From assembly GCA_023623175.1 (NCBI GenBank), contig JAMNXU010000026.1, forward strand, positions 10,383 to 74,382: a stretch of 64,000 nt of DNA. The letters run 5' to 3'. Shown in pieces: positions 6,063 to 49,989 of the stretch. The DNA is from Bacillota bacterium. Its GTDB lineage: Bacteria > Bacillota > Clostridia > Acetivibrionales > JAMNXU01. The translations under genes were made by a program, and so were the position numbers. The notes under the pieces are model-generated. The model saw only the letters and a list, made by a program, of their open reading frames with translations. It had not been told where the DNA came from and did not search any database. Positions within the stretch are counted from its first letter, which is position 1. Each line of letters opens with the position of its first letter.

Positions 6063-6236
6063 ACAGCAAAACCTCTTTTTATGTGCATATTTATACGCAA
6101 ATGATATTTTCATCAATTATACAATAAAAGCAGTCAATTTGCTATACATAACATATGATGCGGAAATTGCAGTGCTGTATAAAAAATATAATTTGCGATT
6201 CGAAGGCCGGATGCTTTCAAAAGGACCACTCTAAAT

Positions 6237-6959
6237 TCACATCTTCGCCAGCGTGATGTCGCCCCAGGCCGCAAGCCTGTCCCCCACGATGACCAACGCT
6301 CCCTCAACTCCCTCGATTGAAGCAGCGAATTCAAGGGCCCGTTCCATATCATCGGCGCATTTCACATGGTTGCCGAGCGCCGTGGCAGCGGCGTCTGCCA
6401 GGGCGGCGTCCCGCGCCAGTATAACGGCGGCATCAGCTTTGCCGAAGCTGAGCGAATGGCCTACGGTCCCCGAGGACGTGCATATTCCCACGGGAGTCCT
6501 GCCCGGCTCGATTTCCACGGCTATTTTCTGGCTCAGCGGAGATAAGCCGGCATAAATGCCTATTTTTCTAACAGAATTGGTTTTAATAAATATATCGCCG
6601 CCGTTTTCCACAATTACCTCGGGACTATGCTTCAGCAGTTCCTTTCCCACGGCTTCGCTTATTGCCCCCGCCACGGCTGCCATTGGTCCGACACCAGCCT
6701 TTTTCGCGGCCTCGCACATGCTTATTGCGATGTCCGGTGCGCCGGGCAAAGGTGATACCGGCACAAGCGAAGTCAAAAAAACAGGTTGCAGCTTTATATA
6801 AACTTCGAGCTGCAGCCTGTATTTCCTTACAAGACTTAAAGCCAGGTCGTGGAGATTTGAATGCGCAGCAATCTGCAAATCGGTTTCCCTGACGCACACG
6901 TTAAAATACTCGAGATTGGCGGCTTTGAACAGATTGCGGTATTTCCTTTCTTCATACAT
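6237..6959 (-). CDS. UPF0280 / COG2122 ApbE-superfamily protein (sulfide-dependent Cys/Hcy biosynthesis accessory protein)
   Basis: Length and sequence are typical of UPF0280 (GVGPMAAVAGAISE..., GICTSSGTVGHSLSFGKADA). It lies immediately downstream of the COG1900 and NIL-ferredoxin genes. Confidence 0.7.
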   Translation of the reverse strand: MYEERKYRNLFKAANLEYFNVCVRETDLQIAAHSNLHDLALSLVRKYRLQLEVYIKLQPVFLTSLVPVSPLPGAPDIAISMCEAAKKAGVGPMAAVAGAISEAVGKELLKHSPEVIVENGGDIFIKTNSVRKIGIYAGLSPLSQKIAVEIEPGRTPVGICTSSGTVGHSLSFGKADAAVILARDAALADAAATALGNHVKCADDMERALEFAASIEGVEGALVIVGDRLAAWGDITLAKM

Positions 6960-7091
6960 CGGACATCTCTCCGGATTTATTCAAGAACTTCTGCCAAAGG
7001 CCTTCATATCATTAAATCAGGTACCAGTAGAGCTCCCGGCCGGGAGCAAGCGGACCTGTCGTTAAATGTTACATGCTCATGACTTCCAATG

Positions 7092-7490
7092 TTACACGCT
7101 CATGACTTTCAGCGGGCAGGCCTTTACGCACAATTCGCAGACATAGCATTTTTCCTTGTCAAAGGTCAGGCTCCAGTCATGCTTGTCCATCTGGAGCGCT
7201 CCCGACGGGCAGACGGCTGTGCATGCTCCGCAATGGACGCATTTGTCCTCCTGCCAGATGATGCTTTTATTGAACAATTTGTATCTTATACCCTCTCTCT
7301 CCAGGAATCCCAGGCCTTCGCGGATATTGGCCTCGTCCCCCTCAAAATCGGCTACCAGCCTGCCTTCCTTGTTCAGGCTTACATCGGCATTCAGTATGTT
7401 TATGCGCAGGTCAAAATCCTTTATGAGGTGATAGGTAACGGGTTTTGTAACCTTGTCCGCAGGGAAACTCATGTATACCTTAATCTTCAT
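7092..7490 (-). CDS. NIL-domain protein fused to a 2x[4Fe-4S] ferredoxin (MA1822-like)
   Basis: An N-terminal NIL-like domain is followed by two CxxCxxCxxxCP motifs (CVHCGACTAVCP and CYVCELCVKACP). Confidence 0.8.
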   Translation of the reverse strand: MKIKVYMSFPADKVTKPVTYHLIKDFDLRINILNADVSLNKEGRLVADFEGDEANIREGLGFLEREGIRYKLFNKSIIWQEDKCVHCGACTAVCPSGALQMDKHDWSLTFDKEKCYVCELCVKACPLKVMSV

Positions 7491-8643
7491 TCCGGGGCCT
7501 CCTGACTTCGAGTTTATTCACCTTGTTGTGCATGGGAAGCGGCGCAACGGGCGCCGTCAGCAAAAATTCCCCGCGGGAAATTTTCTTCTTAAGGAGCTGT
7601 GCAATTTCCCTGGCCTTCCTGAGGCTTGAAAGCGGAGCTGTCGGGATTTTCTTCCCCATGAGCTCCACATATCCGCTCCTGAGCTGCTGGTAGGAAGCGC
7701 TTCCGACCACTCCCATCTGCCCGCTCTTGTCGACAATATCGGTAAATAACTCGCTGTCCGAAACAGAAGCTTTTTCGACAACGTCCTCGTCAAGTGCGGG
7801 AATCGGTATACCTACGCCAATAAAAAGCGTAACACCGTATTTTTCAAAAACCGCCGCACGGACAAATTCAGTGCTCATTTCCTTCAAATTCCCTATCAAT
7901 GCAAGCGTGCCGGCTGCTGCGAGCGGAACGCCGTTTTCTCCCCTTTTCTGATCGGGATTGTGCTGCGTACCCTCCCAGGCCACGTATCCTTCCGCTCCCC
8001 CGAGAAAGACCCTCGTGCCTATTCCTATGGTCCTGTAATAGGGGTCATTCATTAGCGGGCTCAGTTGCCCCGAGGTAGTATAGGTAACGTTTCCGCAATG
8101 CGGCAACAGCGTGCCCATGTACGTGTACATGGTCCTGTCCGAAGCGTTGGTGGCCGCGTTGTAGTTCTGGTATACATTCCTGGGATTGAACATGAAGGCC
8201 TGGTTTATATTGTCCTTGTTTATGTATGTGGTGATTTCGCGCAGCGGATAACAGTCGGTTCCGTAGGATTCAGCATGCAGCTTAACGTCGCGCCCGGCAA
8301 TGAGGTCCTCGATTACATGGGCCCCGCCGTATTCCATACCCCGGGTCGCCGACAGTTCCGTGGCTCCTATGTAAGCATCCACCGCTGCAATACCCGCATA
8401 GGCAGGCACATCGTTAAGCCATACTTTGCTCATGCGTATCGGTGGATCCGAATGTCCGAAATTCAAAAATGCCCCGCTGGAGCACATGGGGCCGAAAGTG
8501 GCCGTGGTGATTACGTCAACTTCCCTGGCAGCCTGGCTGACGCCCTTCTCTGCCACCAGGTCGATAATTTCCTCAGCGGTAACAACAACAGCTTTCCCTT
8601 TCTTTATTTTCTCATTTATCTCTTCTATGCTTTTATACCCCAT
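7480..8643 (-). CDS. COG1900/DUF39 homocysteine biosynthesis protein (MA1821-like, without CBS domains)
   Basis: The family is recognised from the full-length sequence (...TATFGPMCSSGAFLNFGH..., ...GGAEGYVAWEGTQH...). The start is set at MGYKSIEE (8643), which has the RBS AAGAGGG. It overlaps the NIL-Fd start by 11 nt, consistent with an operon. Confidence 0.8.
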   Translation of the reverse strand: MGYKSIEEINEKIKKGKAVVVTAEEIIDLVAEKGVSQAAREVDVITTATFGPMCSSGAFLNFGHSDPPIRMSKVWLNDVPAYAGIAAVDAYIGATELSATRGMEYGGAHVIEDLIAGRDVKLHAESYGTDCYPLREITTYINKDNINQAFMFNPRNVYQNYNAATNASDRTMYTYMGTLLPHCGNVTYTTSGQLSPLMNDPYYRTIGIGTRVFLGGAEGYVAWEGTQHNPDQKRGENGVPLAAAGTLALIGNLKEMSTEFVRAAVFEKYGVTLFIGVGIPIPALDEDVVEKASVSDSELFTDIVDKSGQMGVVGSASYQQLRSGYVELMGKKIPTAPLSSLRKAREIAQLLKKKISRGEFLLTAPVAPLPMHNKVNKLEVRRPRNED

Positions 8644-8745
8644 ACCTTCGCCCTCTTTATTTTTCGTCATTTATCGTCAAATGAGGATAAACTGCAATAT
8701 CCGTCATTTCAGCGGAAATTGCAGCTTATCCCTGGTACAACTTCT

Positions 8746-8774
8746 ATTATAGGACTTAATTCCGTATAATTCAA
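8746..8774 (-). promoter_or_regulatory. Sigma-A type promoter for the homocysteine operon
   Basis: The minus strand reads TTGAAT - 17 nt - TATAAT. Confidence 0.5.
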
Positions 8775-8788
8775 CAAAATGTCGACAT

Positions 8789-9394
8789 TCATACATCGCA
8801 TTCGTCAGGCTTTACAACGTCAGTAAGCCACTTGGGGCTGAATTCAACCGGCCTGTAGGACTCGATATAATCGAGGGCATCGTTGACATCGTCGGTTATA
8901 TAATACAGCTTCCTGCATTCCTCTTTTGCGAACCGGTTGTTAATTATGTGCTCGAACTGGGCGAGCAGGCTGTCATAAAAGCCATATGCATTGAGCAGTA
9001 CAATTGCCTTGTTATGATAGCGAAGCTGTTTTAACGTGATCATTTCAAGGATTTCCTCGAGGGTTCCGTAACCGCCCGGGAGCGCGATGAATGCGTCGGA
9101 CCTCTCGTCCATGATCGCCTTTCTCTCGCGCAGGCCCTCCGTAACAATCAATTCGTCACAGTATTCATACACCACGCCTTTTATATTGAGCGCCCTGGGA
9201 ATGACTCCCACAACCCTGCCTCCACAATTATGAACGGCCTTCGCCGTCTCTCCCATCAGTCCTACAACGCCTCCGCCGTAAAGAAAGATATGTCCGCGTT
9301 TTGCAATCTCGCTTCCGAGCTTGTTGGCAACGCGGAAATAGCGTTCATCGACAGTGCAGCTTGAAGAACTGTAAACACAAATCACCTTGCTCAT
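8789..9394 (-). CDS. LOG family protein (TIGR00730; nucleotide 5'-monophosphate nucleosidase / cytokinin riboside 5'-monophosphate phosphoribohydrolase-like)
   Basis: Both GGGVVGLMG and the signature PGGYGTLEE are present. Confidence 0.85.
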   Translation of the reverse strand: MSKVICVYSSSSCTVDERYFRVANKLGSEIAKRGHIFLYGGGVVGLMGETAKAVHNCGGRVVGVIPRALNIKGVVYEYCDELIVTEGLRERKAIMDERSDAFIALPGGYGTLEEILEMITLKQLRYHNKAIVLLNAYGFYDSLLAQFEHIINNRFAKEECRKLYYITDDVNDALDYIESYRPVEFSPKWLTDVVKPDECDV

Positions 9395-33913: not shown

Positions 33914-34879
33914 TCAAGAATTTTTCCCGATGGTATATGAAGGTTTGGACAACCGTCTCTGCACAAATATAAGTCCGCCTATCCCGACCGCCACCCCGAG
34001 CCACAGCGTAGAAAATCTCGTGATAATCGTCGTCACGGTGGCCGTCTGGCGGTTTACGCCGGCCATCAGCAAAAGGCCGAATATGCTTCCCTCTGTTACA
34101 AGTAGTCCGCCGGGAAGCATGGAGACGGCGCCAACAACGGAAGAGAACGCCACGATAAACAGCGACGAAAGCACCGGTATGGGCGTGCCGAAGGATTTGA
34201 GCACGAGGTAAATGATAATGCCTTCAAATGACCACGACACAATACCGATGGCTATTGAGAACAATACGCTGCCCAGGCACAGCAGCTGATAGGAGCTTTC
34301 ATAAAAGGAATCCAAAGCGCCGGCAAATCTTTTTAACAGCGGCAGTTTTTTCATTACTGAAATAACGCGGCGAGCAAAGGGCCTGTACCTGATAAATATG
34401 ATAAATAAAACCACGCCTGCAAAAGCCGCTGCCAGTACGCTGTAACCATACCGGAACTCAAGGGCGCCGATTGCCGCAAGAATAACCAAGCTGATACCGT
34501 CGGTCATCCTCTCGATTATAACCATCGGGGATGTTACGCTGACAGGAGTCCCGTAGAACTCCTTTATAAGGAAGGATTTCAAAAACTCGCCGAGTTTCCC
34601 CGGCGTAACAGTCATGCTAAGGCCTGAAATGAAAATGCCAAGGCTGTCGCTCCTTTTCATTTTGATGCCCAGGAGTGACAGGTAATATTCCCATTTTATA
34701 TATCGAAAGCAGTAATTCAGCGGAGCCATCATCAGTATGAGCGGAAGAAATTTCGGGTTGAAGGTCGAAAAGGAATCGACAATCTTCCGAAAATCAGAAT
34801 ACACGCCCATTACCATAAGTATTGCAACGCCCGCTATCAGCGATACCAGGATCCTTCTCTTCAGCTGTCCGAAATTCAA
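33914..34879 (-). CDS. Flippase-like membrane protein (UPF0104 / LPG_synthase_TM family)
   Basis: About 8 TM segments and an N-terminal pattern typical of the family (...FRYIKWEYYLSLLGI...). Confidence 0.65.
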   Translation of the reverse strand: MNFGQLKRRILVSLIAGVAILMVMGVYSDFRKIVDSFSTFNPKFLPLILMMAPLNYCFRYIKWEYYLSLLGIKMKRSDSLGIFISGLSMTVTPGKLGEFLKSFLIKEFYGTPVSVTSPMVIIERMTDGISLVILAAIGALEFRYGYSVLAAAFAGVVLFIIFIRYRPFARRVISVMKKLPLLKRFAGALDSFYESSYQLLCLGSVLFSIAIGIVSWSFEGIIIYLVLKSFGTPIPVLSSLFIVAFSSVVGAVSMLPGGLLVTEGSIFGLLLMAGVNRQTATVTTIITRFSTLWLGVAVGIGGLIFVQRRLSKPSYTIGKNS

Positions 34880-34922
34880 GCTGCTTCCTCCACAACGTTT
34901 TTATTCAGTCTTATTTAACCTG

Positions 34923-35100
34923 CCTGCATTGTCCAGTTTGTACCGTTCAGCCTGATTAAATCAGCCTGTATTGTTCAGTCTGCACTGTCCGGCTTTAAAT
35001 CATCCTGCATTGTTCAGTCTGCACCGTTAAGCCTGATTAATTCAGCCTGCAACTTATTCAGCTGGTTACCCGGTCTTCATTTATCAGCTGCCCTGCCCGG
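34923..35100. repeat. Degenerate tandem repeat, about 4 x 39-42 nt
   Basis: CCTGCATTGT(C/T)CAGT(T/C)TG(T/C)ACCGTT(C/A)AGCCTGATTAA(A/T)TCAG-like units start at about 34923, 34965, 35004 and 35046. Confidence 0.6.
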
Positions 35101-35159
35101 ACTATATTTGTTTGGCTGCTTTGCTCTACCTGCCGCTTCTTTTATCCGGCAATTTCAAA

Positions 35160-36245
35160 TTATTTATATTGGGTAAAAAGCCTTCCCCACTTGCTGTTTT
35201 GCTGGTAATCGCGGACTATCTTTTTGCCCTTTACCGGGTACCAGTAGTAGTCGTGGTACAATGCCGAGCCAAGGACAAATATATACACGAGCGGCGTGTG
35301 GAAGAAAAGCTTCTGCAGCGGGCGCAGCGGACCAAACCACATGATGTCCCCGACCCTGCTTGCTCCGTTGTCTCCCACCTCGAAACCGAGGTTTACCTGG
35401 GATATGTCCTCTCCCACCACTTCAATGTTCTCGGGATTGCCGTTGCCAAGCCCTGCCCTGTCTCCTTCGCGGATGTAGTCAATCTGCAGGGGGTCAAAAC
35501 CCATCATTTTTGAAGATATGGCGTCCACGGCCACCTGGTCTCCGCCGGCTATAATGTAATCAGCTTCAACGGGTTTCATCGTCCTCGGTCCCGGACCGTT
35601 CCCCGCTGTTGTTCCGTCAATAACGGCAAAGATTCCCGTGTGGATTTCTTTTTGAATGGCAAGCAAATCCACGAGCGTATCGTGTATGACGCTGTGGGTG
35701 TAATGCCTTTTTGTGTTCAGCAGCCCGCCGAAAGCATTTTTCATCGCGCCCGTTGTCGTGGTATAAATATGGCATTTCATCGTCGGCAGGTGAATTATGT
35801 TTTTGCCGATGAAATAATCGGGAATGTAAATGCCCTCGGGGTATACCTTGTCGAGAACGCGCATCTTTGCCCTGGGCTCGTACCGGATCCATTTCATGTC
35901 TTCTTTTTTAAAGTTGTAAAGTACCGGGATTTCGTACTTTTTGAATATTTCAACATACTTGTTGAGTCTTTCGCCCTTGTAGGCATTGGTAACGACAGTC
36001 TTGTTCTGGACACACACTATGTCGTCGTAACCGTCCTCGCGAAGGCACTGGATAACGGCCTCCAGCTGCCAAGGCGTGGTGTTGGCTCCCGGGTAGGGAA
36101 AATGCCACGATATATTGTCCTTGAGAATGGTGGTTTTCCCTTTTTCCAGGTAATCCTTGTATCCGGCCATCCTCATTAATTTTTTGTAATCTTCTATTAC
36201 CGTTTCAGGTTTCGTTTTGAGCACCGCAACCCTTGATTTCTCCAC
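35160..36245 (-). CDS. DUF362 domain protein with hydrophobic C-terminal tail
   Basis: DUF362-type core (...VLKTKPETV..., ...KNIIHLPTMKCHIYTTTTGAMKNAFGG..., ...VIDGTTAGNGPGP...). The start is set at the GTG at 36245, behind AAAGGAGGAGG and just after the UbiA stop. Confidence 0.65.
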   Translation of the reverse strand: MEKSRVAVLKTKPETVIEDYKKLMRMAGYKDYLEKGKTTILKDNISWHFPYPGANTTPWQLEAVIQCLREDGYDDIVCVQNKTVVTNAYKGERLNKYVEIFKKYEIPVLYNFKKEDMKWIRYEPRAKMRVLDKVYPEGIYIPDYFIGKNIIHLPTMKCHIYTTTTGAMKNAFGGLLNTKRHYTHSVIHDTLVDLLAIQKEIHTGIFAVIDGTTAGNGPGPRTMKPVEADYIIAGGDQVAVDAISSKMMGFDPLQIDYIREGDRAGLGNGNPENIEVVGEDISQVNLGFEVGDNGASRVGDIMWFGPLRPLQKLFFHTPLVYIFVLGSALYHDYYWYPVKGKKIVRDYQQNSKWGRLFTQYK

Positions 36246-36259
36246 TATATCCTCCTCCT

Positions 36260-37147
36260 TTAATAAAACAGCCAAACAATAACGACGCTTGTGGCCACCC
36301 ACAGTAGAATGCTGACGAGCAGCGGCTTGTCCTGCAGGAGAACCAGCTCGGGATTGCCCCCCATGTCGCGCGTAGACACAAGGTACTGGTAACGGAATAT
36401 GCCGTAAAGCACAAAGGGAATTGTCAGCATCATGTAGTGAGATTTGCCCGCGGTGAAAGTATAAAGCATGTATGACATCACTGTTGCCGATGTTGTAACC
36501 GACAGCATCTGGTCAATCAGCTCCGGCGTGTACTCGTCAAGTATTTTCCTGTGCCGGCCCGCATCGGCGCTCAATGTCAGGAGCTCGTTCTTGCGTTTAT
36601 TCAGCGCCAGGAACAGCGATAACAGCGTTGAGCATACGATGAGCCACGGCGAAATCTCCACGTGAATCGCGAGAGCCCCGCCGACGGTCCTGAGCACGAA
36701 TCCCGAAGCAATCAGGAGAACATCCAGGATAATTACCTGCTTGAGTTTTATCGAATAAAGCAGCGTCAGCAAAAAATACAGCGCAAGCACGATGAAAAAA
36801 CCAAAATCCAGCATCCAGGCGAGCGCGATTGATACCGCGAACACCGCCACAGCCCAGGCCGTTGCCGTTCGGGGACGCAGTTTCCCCGAAGCCACGGGCC
36901 TGTGGCACTTCTTTGGATGCAACGCGTCCCTTTCGCGGTCTATTACATCATTGATGAGATAAACCGAACCCGACACCGCGCAAAAAAGCAAAAACGCGGC
37001 AATGGTACGTAAAACGGGCTCAATCTCGATAAATGCCCTGGCAAATATGAGCCCTGCGAACACAAAGCTGTTTTTTGTCCACTGTTTCGGCCTCATGGCC
37101 GTTAAAATATAGTATAGCGTTTTAATGTCCGTTCCCTTCCTTGTCAT
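36260..37147 (-). CDS. UbiA-family prenyl-phosphate phosphoribosyltransferase (decaprenyl-phosphate 5-phosphoribosyltransferase-like, Rv3806c type)
   Basis: The N-terminal RPKQWTKN signature, the Asp-rich motif YLINDVIDRERD, and about 8-9 TM segments. Confidence 0.7.
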   Translation of the reverse strand: MTRKGTDIKTLYYILTAMRPKQWTKNSFVFAGLIFARAFIEIEPVLRTIAAFLLFCAVSGSVYLINDVIDRERDALHPKKCHRPVASGKLRPRTATAWAVAVFAVSIALAWMLDFGFFIVLALYFLLTLLYSIKLKQVIILDVLLIASGFVLRTVGGALAIHVEISPWLIVCSTLLSLFLALNKRKNELLTLSADAGRHRKILDEYTPELIDQMLSVTTSATVMSYMLYTFTAGKSHYMMLTIPFVLYGIFRYQYLVSTRDMGGNPELVLLQDKPLLVSILLWVATSVVIVWLFY

Positions 37148-37520
37148 ATTATACCTGGTTATTATGTACTGTTGTACCAGGTTATTGGTTAGAGCAGGTT
37201 ATCATCGTAACTCGAGCATGTTCATTGTAACCTGAGCATGTCATCATCGTAAAAGGTTATTATCATAACTGGGTTACCAGGTTATTATTTATCAGGCAAT
37301 TTTTGTACCGTGATATTGTTGCACCGGGCCATTAATACCGATCATTCAGTGTATTTATCCGAATTTAATGGTCCTGCAGGAGTTTAGTGGTCCTGCAGTG
37401 GTAAGCCGTATTTCAGTTCTCATATGCGCATTGCCACATCCGCTTCATCGCGCCCCAATCCGGTATCACCATACCCTGCTTAATTTTTCGCTGAGCCTGT
37501 CCCATATCACAATACCCCGT

Positions 37521-39110
37521 TCACCTCGCGTCTATCCTGTACAGGACGCCGTCATCAGCTTTAAAAACAGGCTCAAGGATCAGATATTCTTCCAGTTCCC
37601 CTGGCGTAAGCAGCGTCTGAAGCATTCCTTCCCTTTCAAACCAGGCAAGGTACGCATCGCCGCCTTTATCTATTTTTTTCAAAAATGCCTCAAGACCGTA
37701 CTCGGGCAAACTTCCTTTTCTCGGCACGTATTCCGAGAAAATGCCCGCATGGGCATAGGTCCTCTCGGCGAAATTGGTATAAATTGCACCCCTTTTTGCA
37801 TAGACGGGCAATTCCTTCATGAGTTCCGACTGCGTCCATCCGGTTTCAGCCTTCATTCCGATTCCGTACAACAGGCCTCTTTCAACGTTCCTGTACACCC
37901 CGCAGGCCGGATACACAAGCCACAGCGCCGCCAGGACCAGCAGCGCGTAGTTCAGCACCCGGTTTTTCAGGTACCTGTAAAAGAGTATCGGTATATTGTC
38001 AAGCATATAAAACATTAAAAATATTAGCGGTATGTAAACGGGACACATCAGCCGGTCGTTGATCCTGTCGAACGCCACGGAAGAAGCGGTGTAAACCATG
38101 TAGGCGCAGTAAAAAACAACGAACAGCGCTGCCGGAAGAACGGGTCCGATATTTTGTCGGCTCCATGCCGCAACATTCACCCTGTTCCATTTCTTCAGCC
38201 TGTTTAGCCTCGCGATTGCAATAAGCGCCGCAATAATCGCCAAAACAGCCACAGCAAGAACAACAGCCGTCCAGAGTGCAAGGTTGAAATCCACGCGCTC
38301 ATCGAGCTGCCTCAGGGGAATAAACCACTGCATCACGGTTCTGAAGGCCAAATCCGACGTTTCTCCGAGCGTATAAACCGAGGGCGTCCTGTTGCCAAAA
38401 AGCGTGGAAGAATGAATATAATTGCGGATCGCCCAGGCAGAAAGGGGAATTCCGGAGACAAGGCCGAAAATAAAAGCCTCCTTTATCCTTGAGGTAATCC
38501 TGCCTTCTTTCAGCAAAAGGAGAACCGCGCCTGTTAAAACGCCAATAACCCCGACGTACCTGGCAAGGCAAGCCATCGCGGCAAACAGCGCCGAAAGCCA
38601 ATAACTTTTCTTTTTGCCCTCAATGAAGTATTTCTCTGTGGATAAAAGAAAGGACACCACGAGAAAAACAAAAAGCGGTTCCGACCAGGCATAGCCTGAT
38701 ACCGTTAAAAGTGGCACAGAAAGCAGCACTGCGAGCGTACCGGTGATTGCCAGCGGTATAAACCGGATATGATTTCTGAACCAAAAACCGCTTAAAACTA
38801 CCGTAAGCCCGAACACCACCGCGTTAATGACTCTCGCGGCGGCGGCAGCGCTTAAACCCAAGGCGGAAACCAGCGCTATTACAGCAGGAAACAGCGGCGG
38901 CCACTGGATCATCGGCGTGGAATATCCGAAATACAAAAATCCCCGCCCGTCCTTGAAGGACTCGGCGGCATACAGGTATGCAACGGCGTCGGGAGAAAGA
39001 CCGGCACCGTACTTTGAAGTCGCCGCAAGAACAAGAACGGCGGCTATTATGCCAAGCCCGAAAATCAAGTATTTATCCAGTTTTTTTATCTTCCCCGAAG
39101 ATCTTTTCAT
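37521..39110 (-). CDS. GT-C fold glycosyltransferase (family 39/83-like, polyprenyl-phosphate-sugar dependent)
   Basis: About 12 TM segments, a first-loop acidic motif (GLSPDAVAYLY), and a soluble C-terminal domain of about 130 aa. Confidence 0.65.
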   Translation of the reverse strand: MKRSSGKIKKLDKYLIFGLGIIAAVLVLAATSKYGAGLSPDAVAYLYAAESFKDGRGFLYFGYSTPMIQWPPLFPAVIALVSALGLSAAAAARVINAVVFGLTVVLSGFWFRNHIRFIPLAITGTLAVLLSVPLLTVSGYAWSEPLFVFLVVSFLLSTEKYFIEGKKKSYWLSALFAAMACLARYVGVIGVLTGAVLLLLKEGRITSRIKEAFIFGLVSGIPLSAWAIRNYIHSSTLFGNRTPSVYTLGETSDLAFRTVMQWFIPLRQLDERVDFNLALWTAVVLAVAVLAIIAALIAIARLNRLKKWNRVNVAAWSRQNIGPVLPAALFVVFYCAYMVYTASSVAFDRINDRLMCPVYIPLIFLMFYMLDNIPILFYRYLKNRVLNYALLVLAALWLVYPACGVYRNVERGLLYGIGMKAETGWTQSELMKELPVYAKRGAIYTNFAERTYAHAGIFSEYVPRKGSLPEYGLEAFLKKIDKGGDAYLAWFEREGMLQTLLTPGELEEYLILEPVFKADDGVLYRIDAR

Positions 39111-39284: not shown

Positions 39285-39322
39285 CAAAAAAGGGGTCAGT
39301 GAACTCATTATCACTATACCCC
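39285..39322 (-). terminator. Intrinsic terminator after ilvB
   Basis: The minus strand reads GGGGU-AU-AGUGA-loop-UCACU-G-ACCCC followed by UUUUUUGUUUG. Confidence 0.6.
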
Positions 39323-39357
39323 ATAATATTTGCCACTGTCAATTAAGCCTGAACCGG

Positions 39358-43253: not shown

Positions 43254-43946
43254 TCAAAACATTGAATTTACAATGAAATTATTCTGGTAAAAGAACTTTG
43301 CAAACGACGAAGTATTTATCGCTTCAAAGACTGCGGCAAATTTCGGGGCGGAATTGAAAAGCATCAGCAATGCCATGACAATGTAAACGGAAAGCAGGCC
43401 TTCAACGGCGCCGAAGGCAAACCCCCCGATCTTGTCAACCTGTTTGAATACCGGCAGCTTCGCAATGCCCTTTAAAACCACCTTCAGGAACTTAAGCCCG
43501 ATTCTTGCCGCTATGTACAAAACAATGAGACTTATTATGTCCATGACAACAACGGTAATCTCTCGGCTGACTGTGTCAACGATCTGTTCAACAGGTATCA
43601 GCTCGGAAGGATTCGGTATATGGCCCAGGACCTCTCCCTTTAGAAATCCCGGCAGCTGCAGGCCATTAACAATGGAGTCGGCCGCGGCTTCCTTTATCTG
43701 GCTGTCCAAATGCGGCACCGCTGACTGCTGTTTAATCAACAGGGCATTCCTGATCGATTTTTGGATATTTTCATCCAGTGCCGTTTTGGAAAGCAGTTTC
43801 GCTACGGCAGGATGAAATTTCACCGCAACATATACCGATATGAAAAAGGAGGCTATCCTGTACATCGAAAGGATAAACCCGTTGGACAGTCCGATAACAG
43901 CGAACACGAGAATAACCAGTATTACCGCCAAATCAGCCCAATTCAT
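43254..43946 (-). CDS. CvpA-family membrane protein
   Basis: MNWADLAVILVILVFAVIGLSNGF is a typical CvpA N-terminus. The start is set at 43946, behind GGGGGTG. Confidence 0.7.
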   Translation of the reverse strand: MNWADLAVILVILVFAVIGLSNGFILSMYRIASFFISVYVAVKFHPAVAKLLSKTALDENIQKSIRNALLIKQQSAVPHLDSQIKEAAADSIVNGLQLPGFLKGEVLGHIPNPSELIPVEQIVDTVSREITVVVMDIISLIVLYIAARIGLKFLKVVLKGIAKLPVFKQVDKIGGFAFGAVEGLLSVYIVMALLMLFNSAPKFAAVFEAINTSSFAKFFYQNNFIVNSMF

Positions 43947-43968
43947 GGGATCACCCCCTGGTATAATA

Positions 43969-45171
43969 TTATTTAATGTCAACAATCATAATGCCGGCTT
44001 TTGTCAATACGAGGGCTTCTCGGCCGTTCAAAAGCCTCAGGTCAGTTATGTCGGCCCGTGGCCTGTACACCCCCAGCTGCCTGCCTTTCAGATTGTAAAA
44101 TCTCGCTTCCCTGCCCGAGCATATGCCGATCGTATTTCCTGAAACCGAGAGACGCTGTATATTTCCAGGGACGGAAAAGCTGTCCGTTTCCTCTCCGTCC
44201 TTAAGGCGGATAATGCGTACAGTCACGCGTCCTTTCCCGGAATCGCTTCTTTCATAGGCCGCTATGACAGCGTACCTGCCGTCGGACTCAGCTACACCGT
44301 AGACTTGCCCGGCTTCATATTCCCGGTTCCAGATTATGTTCTTGTTTTTATCAAGATAAACCACCGTACGGTCTCCGGCTGCCAGTATCGAATCATCAGA
44401 AAAGCAGTAAACCGAAGGCAAAATGGTATTCTTTATCCTGATGTCCGCAAAGGGTTTCGTTTCAAACATCTCGCTGAACTCAAGGCGGGCATCAGCAGAT
44501 ACCCCCGACGCGTCCACCTTGTTCAGGAAAAGCTGCCTGCCCGAAGGCAGAACACGCGCGCCTATTACAAAACACTCGGCGATTGTGCGTGTCAGCAGCA
44601 GAGGTTCGTCCAACTGGGGATCAAAAACATCGACTTTTGCCTTGTATCCTTTAATCTCCTGCACAGCCGTTACGAAGCCGTCCTCGCTGACGTCGGCATT
44701 TATCAGGTTGTTTTCAAGTCTCTTGCTCCATACCTGTGTGAGTCCCCTGAATAGATACATTTCACGGCCGTTCAGGTCTGCAACCAGCGTATATTCGCCT
44801 GCAGTCCTGATAATAGGCTTGTTGGCCTGTATCTGGACCGTTTTCTTCTCCTTCCCGGACTTGTCATACCACGTCACCGAGTTCGCAGCGCATTTGATGA
44901 TATCGCCCCTGCTGATGCCGATTACGGTGTGCTCCCTTGAATCATATACAATTTCCCTTACGCCGTCCTTTATTTCCAGGCCTCTTCCGCCCGAAGCCAG
45001 TGAATTCAACACTTCCTTCAGGTTTAAAACATTCAGGTCCGGATCCATGCTTTTCGCATATACCGCAAGAGCGCAGGCCAGGGTTATCACCAGCAGCAAT
45101 ATGAATAAAGCGATGCTTGATTTCGAGATGTGTTTTTCCGTACCCTGTTGCCTGTCATAGCCTGTTTCCAC
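43969..45171 (-). CDS. Membrane-anchored hypothetical protein with repeated beta-rich ectodomain (possibly DUF5711-like)
   Basis: An N-terminal TM segment (IALFILLLVITLACALAV) is followed by a beta-strand-rich repeat pattern. The family assignment is tentative. Confidence 0.45.
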   Translation of the reverse strand: METGYDRQQGTEKHISKSSIALFILLLVITLACALAVYAKSMDPDLNVLNLKEVLNSLASGGRGLEIKDGVREIVYDSREHTVIGISRGDIIKCAANSVTWYDKSGKEKKTVQIQANKPIIRTAGEYTLVADLNGREMYLFRGLTQVWSKRLENNLINADVSEDGFVTAVQEIKGYKAKVDVFDPQLDEPLLLTRTIAECFVIGARVLPSGRQLFLNKVDASGVSADARLEFSEMFETKPFADIRIKNTILPSVYCFSDDSILAAGDRTVVYLDKNKNIIWNREYEAGQVYGVAESDGRYAVIAAYERSDSGKGRVTVRIIRLKDGEETDSFSVPGNIQRLSVSGNTIGICSGREARFYNLKGRQLGVYRPRADITDLRLLNGREALVLTKAGIMIVDIK

Positions 45172-45375
45172 AATACCACCTCGTGACTTTAATCAGGAAG
45201 TCCCCCGGCGCCCGCTGAATTAAATGCAATGCCTTTTTTTCACAGGGAATGCTTCTTGATAAAATATTAGCACAAATTACAGTGATTTTCACTCGTCTGT
45301 TTCGGTTTGCAGCCCTGGGGGAAAGTCCCGGGAAAGGCTCGCAGGCAGGTTCTGCGTATCGGTTCTGTGAACTCA

Positions 45376-45412
45376 TAAAAAATCCTCCCGGAAACGATCC
45401 GGGAGGATTTTT
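45376..45412 (-). terminator. Bidirectional intrinsic terminator after the DUF4340 gene
   Basis: AAAAAATCCTCCCGG-AAACGA-TCCGGGAGGATTTTT. Confidence 0.75.
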
Positions 45413-45428
45413 CAGCCGCTGCTGCCGG

Positions 45429-46829
45429 CTATTTCCCCTTTTTTTCCATTGCTTCGGTCAGGTTTTCAATTGCCGTTCTCAGACCGTCATATTCATCAAA
45501 TCTCTTTTCATCAACTATAAGGCCGGTATACTTGCCGTCCCTCATGACGTAATACGTATACTCATCCCTCGGAACAAACTCAATTACAACCTGCCCGGGA
45601 TCGATCTTGAGCTTGTAGGTAAAGCGCACTTCAGCCTTGGCGTTTGCCGGCGGTTTCTCATTGGGGTTAATGTCGTTCAGGAGAACGCCGATTACCGCCT
45701 GGTAAAGCTTTCTGTACAGCTGGCTGCCGGTTTCGTTTCTCAGATCGGTGACTTCCACGCCGTTGACCCAGAACCTGTCTTTGCTTGAGTCTTCGGGATT
45801 CGTCTGGATTTTAGTATCGTACACTTTCCCGTCAAATTCAATCTTAAGCGCTTCGACATTCTTAATGTCCGTTGCGTATATAAACCGTTCGGAAATCTCC
45901 GAAATATGTTTATCGAGGAATGAATAGGTCCCCGTTCCCACGGTGAATACTTCGTCATCATCGGCAAATTTCGCGTAAAATTCCTGGTTCTTGACCCTTT
46001 CGTCGCCTATGAGGAGTTTCTTTTTCACCTTGTCGGTCTCGACAGAAATTGCATACGACGGTTTGTCAAGGCCGTACTTTTTCAGGTCCGTGGCATGCTC
46101 CTCGATAAAATCTATTATGAATGATTGCTCGACGCTCTTGAGCATCTGCTGTATGGCTTCCATGTCAGCTTCGACAATTACGGGCTCGGTAAGTTCAAAA
46201 CGGTCCTCGCCAATTTTCCTTGCTGAAAACAGCAGCTTTCCGTTTTTCTCCATCGCAAGCCTTGTTATTTCTTCCTGGCCGAAATCATAAAGATTCCTGA
46301 GTTTGAAATCGTTCTTGTTAACAATGAATGTGTTGCCTTCATAGTTGCTGATGGTATAAACGGTATCCGAATCTCCCGGGCGTACATAATAGGCATCCCT
46401 GGTGAGATTCTGGTTACCGACTTCCAGGACCTTTGAAGTGTTTCCTTCAAGTATGACAGTAATCCTGATAGGTTTGTCCAGTCCGTAAACCGACAGGTCC
46501 TGCGCGTTCTCCTCAATTATTTTTTCGGCATTAAGCCGGCTCATGGTATGCGCAATACTGTCCACCATGCCGGTGTTAAGCCTTACTAGGTCCGCGGGCC
46601 TGACTGCCTTCCAGTCGTCATCCTTTTTTTCAAACTCGAAAACACCGCTATTTGTTTCGACAATAACGCGCGTTACCTCATCAGAGTCAAAAGAGAATAT
46701 CTCTATGGTCTCAGTGTCTTCATCATTGCCTTCCCTCTGGAACCTTTTGAAGTCCTCGGCTGCAAAGTACGCGCCTGCCAAAAGCCCCAATACCACTATG
46801 AGAATAATAATGTTTCTGTATAATTTCAT
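45429..46829 (-). CDS. DUF4340 domain protein (accessory component of GldG-type ABC systems)
   Basis: An N-terminal anchor, the typical length, and a position after a GldG-like gene. The ATG at 46829 overlaps the upstream TGA (ATGA) and follows AAGGAGG. Confidence 0.65.
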   Translation of the reverse strand: MKLYRNIIILIVVLGLLAGAYFAAEDFKRFQREGNDEDTETIEIFSFDSDEVTRVIVETNSGVFEFEKKDDDWKAVRPADLVRLNTGMVDSIAHTMSRLNAEKIIEENAQDLSVYGLDKPIRITVILEGNTSKVLEVGNQNLTRDAYYVRPGDSDTVYTISNYEGNTFIVNKNDFKLRNLYDFGQEEITRLAMEKNGKLLFSARKIGEDRFELTEPVIVEADMEAIQQMLKSVEQSFIIDFIEEHATDLKKYGLDKPSYAISVETDKVKKKLLIGDERVKNQEFYAKFADDDEVFTVGTGTYSFLDKHISEISERFIYATDIKNVEALKIEFDGKVYDTKIQTNPEDSSKDRFWVNGVEVTDLRNETGSQLYRKLYQAVIGVLLNDINPNEKPPANAKAEVRFTYKLKIDPGQVVIEFVPRDEYTYYVMRDGKYTGLIVDEKRFDEYDGLRTAIENLTEAMEKKGK

Positions 46830-48337
46830 AGATGCCTCCTTCTGAGCCATACAAAGGCGCCGACACCGAGTATGAACAGCGGAAGAACCGCTACCACAAG
46901 ATACATGGTGATCTTGGCCTGTTGCTGTGTAATGCTCAATTTTTCAACCAGGTTGAGCTTTGCGGGGATCATCAGTACGTCTTCCCTGTCAATTGCCCAG
47001 TTCAAGGCCGACAGGAAGAAGACCATACCGTTGGTAAAGTAGTCCCCGAGTTCAATCGCCGATTCGTCGGTTATAAATCTGGCATTTCCGATTACAATCA
47101 TTTTTGAGGATGTGAATCCTCCCATGTTGTCAATGGCCACAGCCAGATCCAGCGGTCCGGCAATATCATTGCCCGCCGATTTGTCTATCTGTTCTCCGAC
47201 GGATTTTGCACTGGTCTTTATAAGCGAAGTTATGGTTATATATTCCTTTTCGTTCTTTAACAGGTTTATACTCCTCGAATCCTTGAAAAAAGTGCTGAAA
47301 GACTGGGGAATAACCTCATTGGCGCTTATGTCCACAAGGACATTGTAAGGGTCGGTGGGCAGATGCCTTTCAGGATCAGTTTCCTTGACCTTGTCGTTAT
47401 TGATCGATATATTGTAAGGCCTGAACAAATCATTGAACTCCTTGAATTCCGATCCCTTTTCAAGGGAATCAAACATAAATATGGCATCGCCTCCGTTGTC
47501 GAGGAAATCCTGTATCTTTCTCTTCTCAACAGTCAAGAGGTCCTGTTTCGGGGAAACCACCACGAGGGCCGCGGCATCGTCGGGCACGCGTGCCTCGGTA
47601 ATCAGGTTTATCGTTTTTACGTCGAAATTGTTCCTTTCAAGCTGGCTCCTGACCAGTTTCAGGTTCTCGTCGGGAGAATACTCCTGGTGTCCCTGGGTAA
47701 AATAAATTGTCGGAGTCTTGTCGGAACTTACGAACCTTATGGCGCCGGTTATGCTCTGCTCGGCCAGCGAGCCCACTTTCTGCGCCTGGAAGTATTCATT
47801 GTAGTCAATTGCCACGAGGTCGGTATAGGTCAATCTCTTTATTTTGTTCCCGCATTTTACAACGAAGTCATTCTTCTGGATGTTCTTCTGGTTATCCTTG
47901 TCAAGATCTCCGATAAAACCGGGATTCTTGTCGGGATCGATGGTTCTCACCTTGATGTGGTCATATTTTTCGTATTGCTTAAGAAGCTCCATGACATCCA
48001 TGTAATCTTTATACGGCGGCTTGCCCCCGTCAAAAAGACCAATGATTTCCACATCCTTGTCGAGGTTCTCAAGGATCTCCTTTGTTACTTCTCCGATACT
48101 GTAAAGCTTGCTGCTCGTAAGGTCAAACCTTATATCAAACAATCCTATGATAATATTCACCAGGAGTACGGCCGATACCACAATCGCAATCAATACAAGG
48201 GAATTGGAACCGTACTTGAGCGATCTGAGATTTATCTTTGCTTTATTTGATCCGGCTTTTGCCTTATTATTTATTTTCGCCTTTTCATTCGAATTATCCT
48301 TAACTTTTTTATCCTTAACCTTTTTCAAGTTTATCAC
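46826..48337 (-). CDS. GldG-like ABC-transporter auxiliary protein (ABC_transp_aux family)
   Basis: N- and C-terminal TM anchors flank a large ectodomain. It follows the ABC-2 permease. Confidence 0.7.
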   Translation of the reverse strand: MINLKKVKDKKVKDNSNEKAKINNKAKAGSNKAKINLRSLKYGSNSLVLIAIVVSAVLLVNIIIGLFDIRFDLTSSKLYSIGEVTKEILENLDKDVEIIGLFDGGKPPYKDYMDVMELLKQYEKYDHIKVRTIDPDKNPGFIGDLDKDNQKNIQKNDFVVKCGNKIKRLTYTDLVAIDYNEYFQAQKVGSLAEQSITGAIRFVSSDKTPTIYFTQGHQEYSPDENLKLVRSQLERNNFDVKTINLITEARVPDDAAALVVVSPKQDLLTVEKRKIQDFLDNGGDAIFMFDSLEKGSEFKEFNDLFRPYNISINNDKVKETDPERHLPTDPYNVLVDISANEVIPQSFSTFFKDSRSINLLKNEKEYITITSLIKTSAKSVGEQIDKSAGNDIAGPLDLAVAIDNMGGFTSSKMIVIGNARFITDESAIELGDYFTNGMVFFLSALNWAIDREDVLMIPAKLNLVEKLSITQQQAKITMYLVVAVLPLFILGVGAFVWLRRRHL

Positions 48338-48340
48338 CCC

Positions 48341-49039
48341 TTAACTCCAGCGCCTTTTTTCCATTACTCTAACCGTGAGGAACACAAACACTGCTGCAAA
48401 GCTGATATAGTAAACAATGGAACTTACCTTGAGCAGGCCCTGGGCGAAATCGCCGTACCTGGACGTAAGCGAAATCCAGTTTAAAATCATCGAAAGTATT
48501 CCTCCGAACATGTATCCCAGGGGTTCAATAAGCCATATGATAAGCAGTATGACGAAGCTTACAATGGCCGCTATCATCTGGTTCTCGGTCAGTGATGACG
48601 CAAAGACGCCTATGGAAATAAACGCGGCTCCAAGGAGTATAAATCCGATATAGGCTCCCACGAGCTGGGCCGTAACCCGTCCCCCGAAAAACACCATTAT
48701 TATCGGGTATATGAAAGTAATGGCCGTCATCACGAGAAACACGACATAAGCCGCGAGAAATTTGCCCAGAACGATTGACATCAGGCTCTGGGGGGAAGTA
48801 ATCAAAAGCACTTCCGTCTTGTTTTTTCTGTCTTCCGCGATGATTCTCATGGTAAGAATTGGCACAACAAAAATAAGCAGGAACTTCATCGTTTCGAGAT
48901 TCTCATGGAAATTCGGGTCCTGCATGAACAGGTTGTAGGTGAAGAATACCGATGACAGCAGGATGAACAGCCCAATCAAAATATATGCAACCGGAGCGTA
49001 AAAATAGGATTTTATCTCCTTCCTCATAATCGCCAGCAT
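48341..49039 (-). CDS. ABC-2 type transporter permease
   Basis: A 6-TM hydrophobic protein whose start overlaps the ATPase stop. Confidence 0.8.
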   Translation of the reverse strand: MLAIMRKEIKSYFYAPVAYILIGLFILLSSVFFTYNLFMQDPNFHENLETMKFLLIFVVPILTMRIIAEDRKNKTEVLLITSPQSLMSIVLGKFLAAYVVFLVMTAITFIYPIIMVFFGGRVTAQLVGAYIGFILLGAAFISIGVFASSLTENQMIAAIVSFVILLIIWLIEPLGYMFGGILSMILNWISLTSRYGDFAQGLLKVSSIVYYISFAAVFVFLTVRVMEKRRWS

Positions 49040-49989
49040 TATTGCTCAACTCCCTTCTCCTCGGTAATCAGCTGAAGGAATATGTCTTCGAGAGACATGC
49101 TGAGGGACTTCATTTCGAGTATTGAATATCCTGCCTCGGCCATGGCTGAAAACAGCGATTTTCTGATATCCACATCCTTTTCGGATTCTATTACGTATGT
49201 TGTATTTTCCTTCTCTGTTGATTCGACGGGCTCAACATATGTCACTCCGCCTATCCCCCTGATTTTGCCCAGGACCGAGTTTCTCGGGCCGGTTATCGTT
49301 ACCGACAGCCTGTTTGATTTTCCTATGTGCCTGGACAGGTTTTCGGGAGTGTCAACCGCGGCAATTTCGCCCTTGTTTATGATTACCACTCTTTCGCATA
49401 CCATGCTGACTTCCGGCAGGATATGGGAGCTGAGAATAATTGTGTGCTCTTTTCCGAGAGCCTTGATCAGTCGTCTTATTTCAATTATCTGTTTCGGGTC
49501 AAGTCCCACGGTGGGCTCATCGAGAATAAGCACTTCAGGATTGCCCACGAGAGCCTGGGCCAAACCCACTCTCTGCCTGTAACCCTTGGACAGGTTCTTT
49601 ATCAGCCTGTTCCTGTGGTCGGTTATTCCGGTGAGTTCCATAATATCGTCAATCTGGGCTTTTTGCTTCTTTTTCGGCACAAGCTTGATATCTGCGACGA
49701 AGTTCAGAAAATCTTTTACGGTCATGTCAAGATAAACCGGGGGTTGCTCAGGCAAAAAGCCTATGCGTTTTTTCACTTCCGTGGGATGTTCCAGGATGTC
49801 ATAGCCACAAACTCGTACTGAACCTGAAGTGGAAGACAGGTACCCCGTTATAATGTTCATCGTGGTAGACTTCCCTGCGCCGTTAGGTCCCAAGAAGCCA
49901 AGAATTTCGCCCTTTTCTACCGTAAAGCTCACGTTGTTGATTGCCTTGATCTGACCGTATATTTTGGTCAGATTCTGTATTTCTATCAT
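49039..49989 (-). CDS. ABC transporter ATP-binding protein
   Basis: Walker A is GPNGAGKST, the signature is LSKGYRQR, and Walker B is LILDEP. Confidence 0.92.
   Translation of the reverse strand: MIEIQNLTKIYGQIKAINNVSFTVEKGEILGFLGPNGAGKSTTMNIITGYLSSTSGSVRVCGYDILEHPTEVKKRIGFLPEQPPVYLDMTVKDFLNFVADIKLVPKKKQKAQIDDIMELTGITDHRNRLIKNLSKGYRQRVGLAQALVGNPEVLILDEPTVGLDPKQIIEIRRLIKALGKEHTIILSSHILPEVSMVCERVVIINKGEIAAVDTPENLSRHIGKSNRLSVTITGPRNSVLGKIRGIGGVTYVEPVESTEKENTTYVIESEKDVDIRKSLFSAMAEAGYSILEMKSLSMSLEDIFLQLITEEKGVEQ

Follow-up and report, generated by a model that had tools for sequence, protein, structure and literature searches.

A candidate gene module for glycosylation with a lipid-linked pentofuranose in a clostridial genome, with a DUF362 protein next to a predicted polyprenyl-phosphate phosphoribosyltransferase

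It is chiefly through the mycobacterial cell wall, whose enzyme DprE1 is a major target for drugs, that lipid-linked pentofuranose donors are known; in the O antigens of Gram-negative bacteria they have been shown only recently. Three-component pentofuranose systems have been demonstrated experimentally in Citrobacter (PMC11127046); they combine a polyprenyl-phosphate 5-phosphoribosyltransferase (PPPRS) and a phosphatase with a flippase and a GT-C glycosyltransferase, and an epimerase may or may not be included. The present analysis concerns four consecutive minus-strand genes in a 64-kb stretch of a Bacillota genome of the order Acetivibrionales (contig JAMNXU010000026.1, positions 10,383 to 74,382), the whole of which is termed the window. 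Its predicted PPPRS, flippase-like and GT-C-fold genes are contiguous, as three-component systems require, and are joined by a gene for a DUF362 protein. We consider it rather probable that the four genes constitute a module for extracytoplasmic glycosylation with a lipid-linked pentofuranose. Because such a pathway was described outside the actinobacteria in 2024 (Kelly et al., PMC11127046), its general type is less novel, while the DUF362 part is still novel. The four genes are:

37521-39110, minus strand: predicted GT-C-fold glycosyltransferase, 529 amino acids, ATG start
36260-37147, minus strand: UbiA-superfamily protein, predicted PPPRS (like decaprenyl-phosphate phosphoribosyltransferase, DPPRS), 295 amino acids
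35160-36245, minus strand: DUF362 protein, 361 amino acids, GTG start
33914-34879, minus strand: UPF0104/LPG_synthase_TM membrane protein (MprF flippase-domain, 'PplT'), candidate flippase, 321 amino acids, TTG start

A sequence-only reading of this DNA had proposed four open reading frames (ORFs) of these families at these positions. All four are present, and the family calls hold in hidden Markov model searches for the UbiA protein (PF01040/NF008977), the DUF362 protein (PF04015) and the UPF0104 protein (PF03706/TIGR00374); the GT-C call, which finds no match in Pfam, was borne out by AlphaFold2 (AF2) modeling and Foldseek.

The UbiA protein matches PF01040 in Pfam (E 4e-28) and surpasses the cut-offs of two NCBIfam models, NF008977 for decaprenyl-phosphate phosphoribosyltransferase (291 bits, cut-off 234) and NF008978 (224 bits, cut-off 207). 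It carries the motifs MRPKQWTKN and NDVIDRERD, which the sequence-only reading had correctly picked out as RPKQWTKN and NDVIDRERD. A profile of 19 orthologues compared with the PDB retrieves Rv3806c (8J8J) as its best match at E 5e-62, the next UbiA enzyme following at 5e-12. The structure of Rv3806c defines the residues in contact with phosphoribosyl pyrophosphate (PRPP), and this phosphoribose site is not common to other UbiA enzymes (PMC10994848). Ten of the 11 residues of the set are kept in the window protein: R22, K28, Y70, N73 and D77 of Rv3806c correspond to R19, K25, Y63, N66 and D70, and K87, R90, Y138, K143 and Y157 to K80, R83, Y131, K136 and F150, the exception being Q135, which is replaced by T128. 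The ten positions are invariant across the 19 orthologues; the Q135 position is N in many of these, and the Y157 position is F in the window protein, as in some mycobacteria. The kept residues include K28 and Y70, ligands of the 5'-phosphate that are missing from other UbiA enzymes. Given the NCBIfam score, the match to Rv3806c and the kept PRPP site, the prediction that the window UbiA is a polyprenyl-phosphate phosphoribosyltransferase is well supported, by inference from sequence. It aligns to the UbiA part alone (positions 192-472) of the longer NF006088 model, and it has no fused HAD phosphatase domain. A role as a quinone, heme O or chlorophyll prenyltransferase was considered and ruled out, those models scoring far below their cut-offs: the heme O, MqnP and UbiA aromatic prenyltransferase models reach at most 47 bits, against cut-offs of at least 210. 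The grouping with polyprenyl-phosphate phosphoribosyltransferases rather than with quinone or heme O enzymes, on which the sequence-only reading had made its proposal depend, is thus seen both in the model scores and in the match to Rv3806c.

The 529-residue protein has no match in Pfam, the PMT_2 and PMT models included, and shows a weak match to the LA_3751/LA_3752 putative glycosyltransferases of NCBIfam (E 4e-6). Its AF2 model (predicted local distance difference test, pLDDT, 88.5) has some 13 helices in the membrane, and its C-terminal part (residues ~420-529) forms an alpha/beta domain on the extracytoplasmic side. When compared with the PDB by Foldseek, this model retrieves ArnT (5EZM) first, with E 2.4e-8 and a template modeling (TM) score of 0.59, followed by PglB/OST, AftA, Pmt, AftB and EmbA/B, with 27 GT-C structures at E <= 1e-3; as modeled, the fold is that of the GT-C enzymes. 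ArnT, the nearest structural match, is a member of CAZy family GT83. Across 25 homologues there is no variation at D41, in the loop after the first membrane helix, at Y45, in a PP..P motif or at R184-Y185. PF13231 or PF02366 is found in some homologues. GT-C enzymes hold their catalytic acid in the first outer loop, where Asp41 sits. The protein is poorly conserved, with 31-43% identity among its closest relatives.

The UPF0104 protein matches PF03706 over nearly its whole length (E 9e-43, 147 bits, profile positions 2-302 of 302) and TIGR00374 above its cut-off (E 3e-20, 72.9 bits against 43.2), and additionally shows a weak match to a GlcN-PG flippase. In archaeal glycosylation, members of this family, renamed PplT (bioRxiv 10.1101/2022.03.11.483950), are predicted to act as flippases of lipid-linked sugars (PMC5898192). 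Given this prediction and the adjacency of the gene to the rest of the module, the proposal that the protein is a candidate flippase for a sugar-lipid, already made from the sequence, stands.

The DUF362 protein matches PF04015 over profile positions 3-198 of 200 (E 9e-26, 91.6 bits against a cut-off of 24). Its AF2 model (pLDDT 80.7) displays an N-terminal soluble alpha/beta domain with no signal peptide, and C-terminal helices (~294-359) of hydrophobic or amphipathic character in which a hydrophobic stretch is followed by a Lys/Arg-rich tail; on this model the protein can be read as a cytoplasmic enzyme anchored at the membrane. The mechanically defined ORF reaches 36302, and 20 orthologues all start with M-x-KS(K/R)VAVLKT; the start is therefore placed at 36245, not 36302. 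The GTG codon there is preceded by AGGAGG and lies 14 nt from the UbiA stop, rather than the 12 nt given previously. Members of its subfamily from different phyla (Firmicutes, Chloroflexi, Myxococcota, Bacteroidota, Acidobacteriota and others) share 65-87% identity, and when a library clustered at 50% identity was searched, a single full-length DUF362 representative scored far above the rest of the 6,251 representative clusters. Several members (P0181, P0187, P0188, P0245, P0251, P0182 and P0192) are interrupted by class-1 inteins precisely at the junction of K157 and C158 (window ~35772-35777) in the signature HLPT-x-K|C-H-I-Y-T-T-T-T-G-A-M-K-N-A-F-G-G; most of these inteins contain a LAGLIDADG homing endonuclease. 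Inteins usually occupy the active sites of essential, highly conserved proteins. More distant, paralogous DUF362 groups (P0190, P0199, P0203, P0210, P0224 and others) keep the PWQ, VDLL, MDGT and DxVAxD motifs and the C-terminal WG.LF..Y; as they are without the K-C/T-H...T-G-A-M-K-N...R-H-x-x-H signature, they may be inactive or act differently.

For all four proteins, the nearest relatives are encoded in metagenome-assembled genomes (MAGs) of Acetivibrionales and other Clostridia. All four genes, in the same order and with short spacers, are found in an Acetivibrionales MAG (locus L081), between a sugar ATP-binding cassette (ABC) transporter and unrelated genes, and locus L001 also holds all four; a further locus (L087) has the GT-C, UbiA and DUF362 genes, its contig ending inside the last of these. 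Between the window and L081 or L001 the identity is ~82% for DUF362, 66-67% for UbiA, 58% for the flippase-like protein and 35-36% for the GT-C enzyme. The recurrence of the order in relatives inside different flanks suggests that the four genes form a unit.

At a greater phyletic distance, the neighborhoods of DUF362 were surveyed in a sample of 80 genome loci around its orthologues. A PPPRS-type UbiA gene adjoins DUF362 in 20 of the 80, mostly at a gap of 10-25 nt, and these adjacencies span about seven phyla (Bacillota, Ignavibacteriota, Bacteroidota, Chlorobiota, Myxococcota, Spirochaetota and Glassbacteria). An LPG_synthase_TM gene adjoins it in 21 (Bacillota and Acidobacteriota), and one or both of these partners in 36; in Thermoanaerobaculia the order is DUF362, UPF0104 and then a PMT_2/TPR GT-C gene. 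One protein (P0233) that appeared to be a DUF362-flippase fusion was rejected as such for its frameshift-like linker and was counted as an adjacency. When the 192 ORFs around 36 UbiA-DUF362 pairs were scanned with Pfam and the 25 commonest families listed for each of two flank sets, small membrane transporters emerged as the recurrent partners (EamA 14, LPG_synthase_TM 5, SMR 3), and PAP2, HAD, DprE1, DprE2, FAD_binding_4 and SDR are absent from the 25 commonest families of either set. Thus, the stable core consists of the PPPRS, DUF362 and a transporter of interchangeable family, as would be expected of a pathway that synthesises a lipid-linked sugar, modifies it and moves it across the membrane, and the GT-C gene adjoins it in some lineages only.

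A second sample was centered on UbiA and comprised 56 metagenome loci in which that protein is 43-67% identical to the one in the window and is followed by at least 900 nt. The gene directly after UbiA encodes DUF362 in 12 of these, mevalonate kinase in ten, a pair of DprE1-like and DprE2-like proteins in six and other products in 28. The association of UbiA with DUF362 is therefore frequent, not universal: the sequence-only reading had expected the coupling to be conserved, and this is so in several phyla, often with gaps of 10-25 nt, but in both samples it is confined to a minority of the loci (20/80 and 12/56). In the six loci with the DprE pair (L125, L127, L128, L140, L147 and L163; in L127 at 5887-9153) the order is UbiA, DprE1-like (FAD_binding_4 and ALO) and DprE2-like SDR; their UbiA proteins are 45-49% identical to that of the window, and none of them has DUF362. 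In a Spirochaetes MAG (L032, JAFGJX010000046.1, 7624-10954), an overlapping operon encodes an SMR/EamA-like protein, DUF362, a HAD hydrolase (PF12710, E 7e-38), UbiA and GtrA; this is the most complete lipid-linked-pentose gene set seen alongside DUF362.

Other arrangements were also recovered with UbiA. In Chloroflexi/Anaerolineales a mevalonate kinase gene (TIGR00549, 271 bits) lies directly after a PPPRS-type UbiA gene, as in L124 (6001-7832) and likewise in L098, L115, L130, L135, L136, L138, L143, L148, L150 and L151, which amounts to 11 of 80 loci by tblastn, ten of them belonging to the 56 with enough flank. Isopentenyl-phosphate kinase comes next in five of them, and within Anaerolineales the UbiA proteins of this type are 82-92% identical; as their source names place them in Chloroflexi/Anaerolineales, this phylum has UbiA away from DUF362 as far as flanks of up to 10 kb show. 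In L164 a 'divergent PAP2' (DUF212) gene, maybe an analogue of Rv3807c, lies ~160 nt 3' of UbiA (6001-6807). In five loci (L102, L142, L145, L157 and L158) UbiA is followed by a conserved protein of ~300-330 amino acids, with the N-terminal pattern ...F-x-[IVL]-R-S-D-S-V-[ND]-V-E-x-I-M-x-x-I-R... and no Pfam match for its first 70 residues; in L102 and L158 GT4 glycosyltransferases come after it.

Among the large ORFs of the 64-kb window scanned with Pfam there are no DprE1, DprE2, PAP2, HAD or lar genes, and tblastn of environmental DprE1-like, DprE2-like and HAD proteins against it found none either, the DprE1-like and DprE2-like queries giving nothing below E 0.3. The claim that the locus holds no known epimerase or phosphatase gene is accordingly confirmed for the window by both searches. 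A pathway consistent with this gene complement would begin at the cytoplasmic face, where the UbiA protein, judging from its family membership and conserved active site, would move 5-phosphoribose from PRPP to polyprenyl phosphate. The DUF362 protein, which would be anchored through its C-terminal helices and have a catalytic domain facing the cytoplasm, might then process the lipid intermediate, and the UPF0104 protein might flip the product to the outer leaflet. There the GT-C enzyme, as its fold suggests, would move the pentose to an outside acceptor, for which a secondary cell-wall polymer, a lipoteichoic-acid-like polymer, a glycolipid and an S-layer glycan are candidates.

With regard to the processing step, we tentatively favor the possibility that the DUF362 protein modifies the sugar itself, by an epimerisation or oxidation-reduction that replaces DprE1/DprE2, possibly through a LarA-like hydride shuttle. 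This role is ranked above removal of the 5'-phosphate, the remainder falling to other or accessory roles. It is favored because a DprE1/DprE2-like pair fills the slot after UbiA in six loci and never occurs with DUF362, and the phosphatase role is disfavored because L032 already pairs a HAD protein with PPPRS and DUF362. The epimerase version arises from the fold: Foldseek places the nickel-pincer nucleotide (NPN) enzymes 9Q3K and 9Q3J, which are LarA-like, at the top of the matches to the DUF362 model, albeit weakly (E 3e-3, TM score 0.30-0.38, probability 0.98-0.99), and such fold relatives perform the hydride abstraction and return needed for 2'- or 3'-epimerisation. DUF362 also shares a Pfam clan with the N-terminal domain of LarA (PMC11770544). 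In LarA, H174 is the catalytic His, K184 binds the cofactor and H200 binds Ni (PMC12611868). Three residues invariant in the DUF362 core subfamily, H159, K169 and H184, stand in a comparable array, H159-x9-K169-x14-H184 as against H174-x9-K184-x15-H200 in the LarA sequence, which was checked against 5HUQ. It is conceivable, if doubtful, that the core DUF362 proteins represent a hitherto unrecognised class of membrane-anchored enzymes that make another pentose donor from polyprenyl-phospho-ribose(-5-phosphate) by a LarA-like shuttle, one protein replacing DprE1/DprE2. A nickel-pincer or other tightly bound cofactor in DUF362 is a similarly speculative part of this reading. To an equally uncertain degree, the protein could lie at the heart of such a pathway across Bacillota, Chloroflexota, Bacteroidota, Ignavibacteriota, Acidobacteriota, Myxococcota and Spirochaetota, its importance then accounting for the 65-87% identity between phyla and for the inteins.

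Several results weigh against these proposals. The likeness of the H-K-H arrays was seen by eye and has no alignment support. DUF362 has no Lar_N match at E <= 0.01; a PDB sequence search with its profile gave noise only, with no LarA at E <= 10 and no solved structure; and when DUF362 alignments of 21 and 29 sequences were compared with a three-sequence LarA alignment from PDB sequences, the profile-profile comparison (hhalign) returned a probability below 1%, which is not significant. Hence, the H-K-H correspondence remains conjecture, and the structure prediction that the sequence-only reading had called for yielded a weak LarA-like fold match (TM score 0.30-0.38) with no support from profiles. 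There is no larB, larC or larE gene among the large ORFs scanned in the 64-kb window. A full-text literature search retrieved no paper that assigns a function to DUF362 and no biochemical data for any protein of the family. A phosphatase or epimerase may be encoded elsewhere in the genome. The mutual exclusion of DUF362 and DprE1/DprE2 (0 of 6, ~1.2 expected) is not statistically significant, and L032 is a single locus whose UbiA is 34% identical to that of the window. DUF362 is not beside UbiA in 44 of the 56 UbiA-centered loci, and it is solitary in Chloroflexia. In 17 Polyangiaceae/Myxococcales loci (L006, L012, L017, L026, L041, L045, L047, L051, L062, L064, L069, L073-L075 and L078-L080) a DUF362 gene, its product 64-68% identical, lies ~100 nt 3' of enolase on the same strand, with no UbiA or flippase-like gene within 8 kb. 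Finally, 65-87% conservation across phyla and the presence of inteins are unusual for a protein that decorates a variable glycan; the DUF362 protein, a novel and testable component, may thus have a more central function.

The intergenic regions of the cluster are also pertinent to the coherence of the module. Their features are:

37148-37520, minus strand: spacer of 373 nt between the GT-C and UbiA genes, with several short direct repeats of 17-24 nt
34880-35159, minus strand: spacer of 280 nt between the DUF362 and flippase-like genes, with three degenerate ~40-nt copies at 34914-35049
39313-39342, minus strand: promoter-like site 5' of the GT-C gene, TTGACA, 18 nt, TATAGT, matching 11 of 12 consensus positions

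The lengths of 280 and 373 nt and the direct repeats agree with what had been described from the sequence alone. In the shorter spacer the repeats share a 21-nt core, GTGCAGACTGAACAATGCAGG, with three matches, all at 34914-35049 (0 expected) and none elsewhere in the 64-kb window; the repeats of the longer spacer lie at 37148-37400. An Rfam scan of 33-40 kb, both spacers included, gave no family at E <= 0.1. The repeats could be regulatory binding sites or insertion remnants. In relatives neither of these two junctions has a spacer longer than about 230 nt: GT-C and UbiA overlap or abut in L081, which suggests that the 373-nt spacer is specific to the lineage of the window, and the DUF362/flippase-like spacer is 18-70 nt in L001 and L081. 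The promoter-like site at 39313-39342 is a consensus match alone, of a kind whose number in this region does not exceed the shuffled expectation, and a second such site lies within the 373-nt spacer, before the UbiA gene. As the long spacers interrupt the cluster of the window, co-transcription is not assured, which is a further point against the module. The cluster is flanked by ilvD-ilvB upstream and rpmG-secE-nusG-rplK downstream, and the window also encodes SpoIIR and a protein with an SLH domain, which, together with the Acetivibrionales and Clostridia relatives of the four proteins, is consistent with a Firmicute origin. A connection of the pathway with SLH-domain anchoring, as raised in the sequence-only reading, is speculative. 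At 43254-49989, 5' of ilvBD, lies an envelope-related run of genes (Colicin_V/CvpA-like, DUF5711, DUF4340, ABC_transp_aux/DUF7088, ABC-2 permease and ABC ATPase) that resembles an auxiliary-component ABC transporter set.

Of the other explanations, the one ranked next after a sugar-modifying role is that DUF362 is the missing 5'-phosphatase, an analogue of Rv3807c (PAP2) or of the HAD domain, and that ribofuranose is transferred with no epimerase involved. Between the PPPRS reaction and flipping, the known systems strictly require dephosphorylation alone (PMC11127046), and this is likewise the sole obligatory activity for which there is no candidate gene here, the window having a UbiA with no fused domain and neither PAP2 nor HAD. 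The absence of phosphatase families from the 25 commonest families around the 36 UbiA-DUF362 pairs points in the same direction, as do the many invariant His and Asp residues of DUF362, which are possible metal ligands. We nonetheless regard this function as unlikely: the operon in L032 holds DUF362 together with a HAD hydrolase and UbiA, the fold relatives of DUF362 are hydride-transfer racemases, inspection of DUF362 reveals no CX5R or DxDxT motif, the degree of its conservation is unusual for a simple phosphatase, and phosphatases of the Rv3807c and HAD types are partly dispensable in the known systems (PMC11127046). A broader alternative, which we hold to be more unlikely still, is that UbiA and DUF362 make a housekeeping lipid or precursor, for example a membrane component derived from polyprenyl-phospho-pentose or an isoprenoid-linked step, to which the GT-C and UPF0104 genes are lineage-specific additions. 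It would accommodate the single 50%-identity cluster that the DUF362 core subfamily forms over many phyla, the inteins at its signature, the position of the Anaerolineales UbiA genes directly before mevalonate kinase and isopentenyl-phosphate kinase, that of DUF362 after enolase in the 17 Polyangiaceae/Myxococcales loci, and the GT-C enzyme, which is only 31-43% identical among its closest relatives and not present in most UbiA-DUF362 neighborhoods. It is at odds with the recurrent partner families (SMR/ArnEF-like, GtrA, EamA and UPF0104), which are known or proposed flippases of lipid-linked sugars, with the adjoining GT-C genes in Bacillota and Acidobacteriota, and with the active site of the UbiA protein, which is that of a PRPP-using DPPRS, an enzyme whose product has its sole known use as a glycosyl donor precursor.

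It is highly improbable that the four genes are chance neighbors in separate transcription units, with UbiA a quinone or heme O prenyltransferase. The 280- and 373-nt spacers, the promoter-like site before UbiA, and locus L089, which has a GT-C-UbiA pair and neither DUF362 nor a flippase gene within 6 kb, are compatible with such a view. Yet the gene order is kept in relatives inside unrelated flanks, the adjacency of UbiA and DUF362 extends over ~7 phyla, and the heme O, MqnP and aromatic prenyltransferase models score far below their cut-offs against a protein that keeps the PRPP residues.

The reading of the four genes as a glycosylation module suggests that Firmicutes and many environmental phyla follow the same pentofuranose scheme with other components, namely an MprF-type flippase in place of MATE or SMR/GtrA proteins, and DUF362 in the usual slot of the epimerase or phosphatase. 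The module would also hint that phyla which have received little study possess as yet unrecognised envelope glycans containing pentose, and a defined substrate and genetic context would make the large DUF362 family directly testable. If DUF362 were a one-protein epimerase, it would provide a new route to arabinofuranose or xylofuranose donors, and if it were LarA-like, chemistry of the LarA type would be extended from 2-hydroxy acids to lipid-linked sugars.

Compared with LarA (DUF2088, Pfam clan CL0471), DUF362 shares the clan and shows a weak fold match and, by eye, a similar H-x9-K...H spacing; a 2'-epimerisation of ribose would call for the chemistry of LarA, in which a CH-OH carbon gives up hydride and takes it back. 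DUF362 differs in having no significant sequence or profile similarity to LarA, no evident second catalytic His or C-terminal domain, a predicted membrane anchor and no nearby lar cofactor genes, and its substrate would be a lipid-linked sugar rather than a 2-hydroxy acid. The ArnT/ArnE-ArnF system resembles the proposed pathway in its polyprenyl-phosphate sugar, its small membrane flippases and its GT-C transfer; ArnT is the closest structural match of the window GT-C enzyme, and at some loci UbiA-DUF362 is found together with SMR proteins resembling ArnE/F. Unlike the pathway proposed here, the Arn donor is made from UDP-4-amino-4-deoxy-L-arabinose (UDP-Ara4N) by a GT2 enzyme and not from PRPP by UbiA, and its acceptor, lipid A, does not exist in a Firmicute.

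The mycobacterial decaprenyl-phospho-arabinose (DPA) pathway (Rv3806c, Rv3807c, DprE1/DprE2, Rv3789 and Emb/Aft) has a homologous first enzyme with the same PRPP site as is kept in the window protein, and likewise relies on GT-C enzymes that use a lipid-linked pentose outside the membrane. The window departs from it in having no DprE1, DprE2, PAP2 or GtrA gene and a small GT-C enzyme (529 amino acids) that is more ArnT- than Emb-like, and its DUF362 and UPF0104 genes have no counterpart in the mycobacterial locus. With respect to the Citrobacter youngae O1/O2 system (ORF12, ORF14 and ORF15, with or without ORF13; Kelly et al. 2024, PMC11127046), the window PPPRS is without the fused HAD domain, the flippase candidate is UPF0104 (MprF-type) and not MATE, the GT-C enzyme is nearest to ArnT in fold, the accessory protein is DUF362 and not an SDR-type epimerase or DprE1/E2, and the host is a Gram-positive spore former. 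On the predicted functions, the two nevertheless have in common a UbiA-type PPPRS for lipid-linked ribofuranose, a membrane flippase, a GT-C enzyme with an extra C-terminal outer domain, and an optional extra enzyme that changes the pentose, a place that DUF362 may take in the window.

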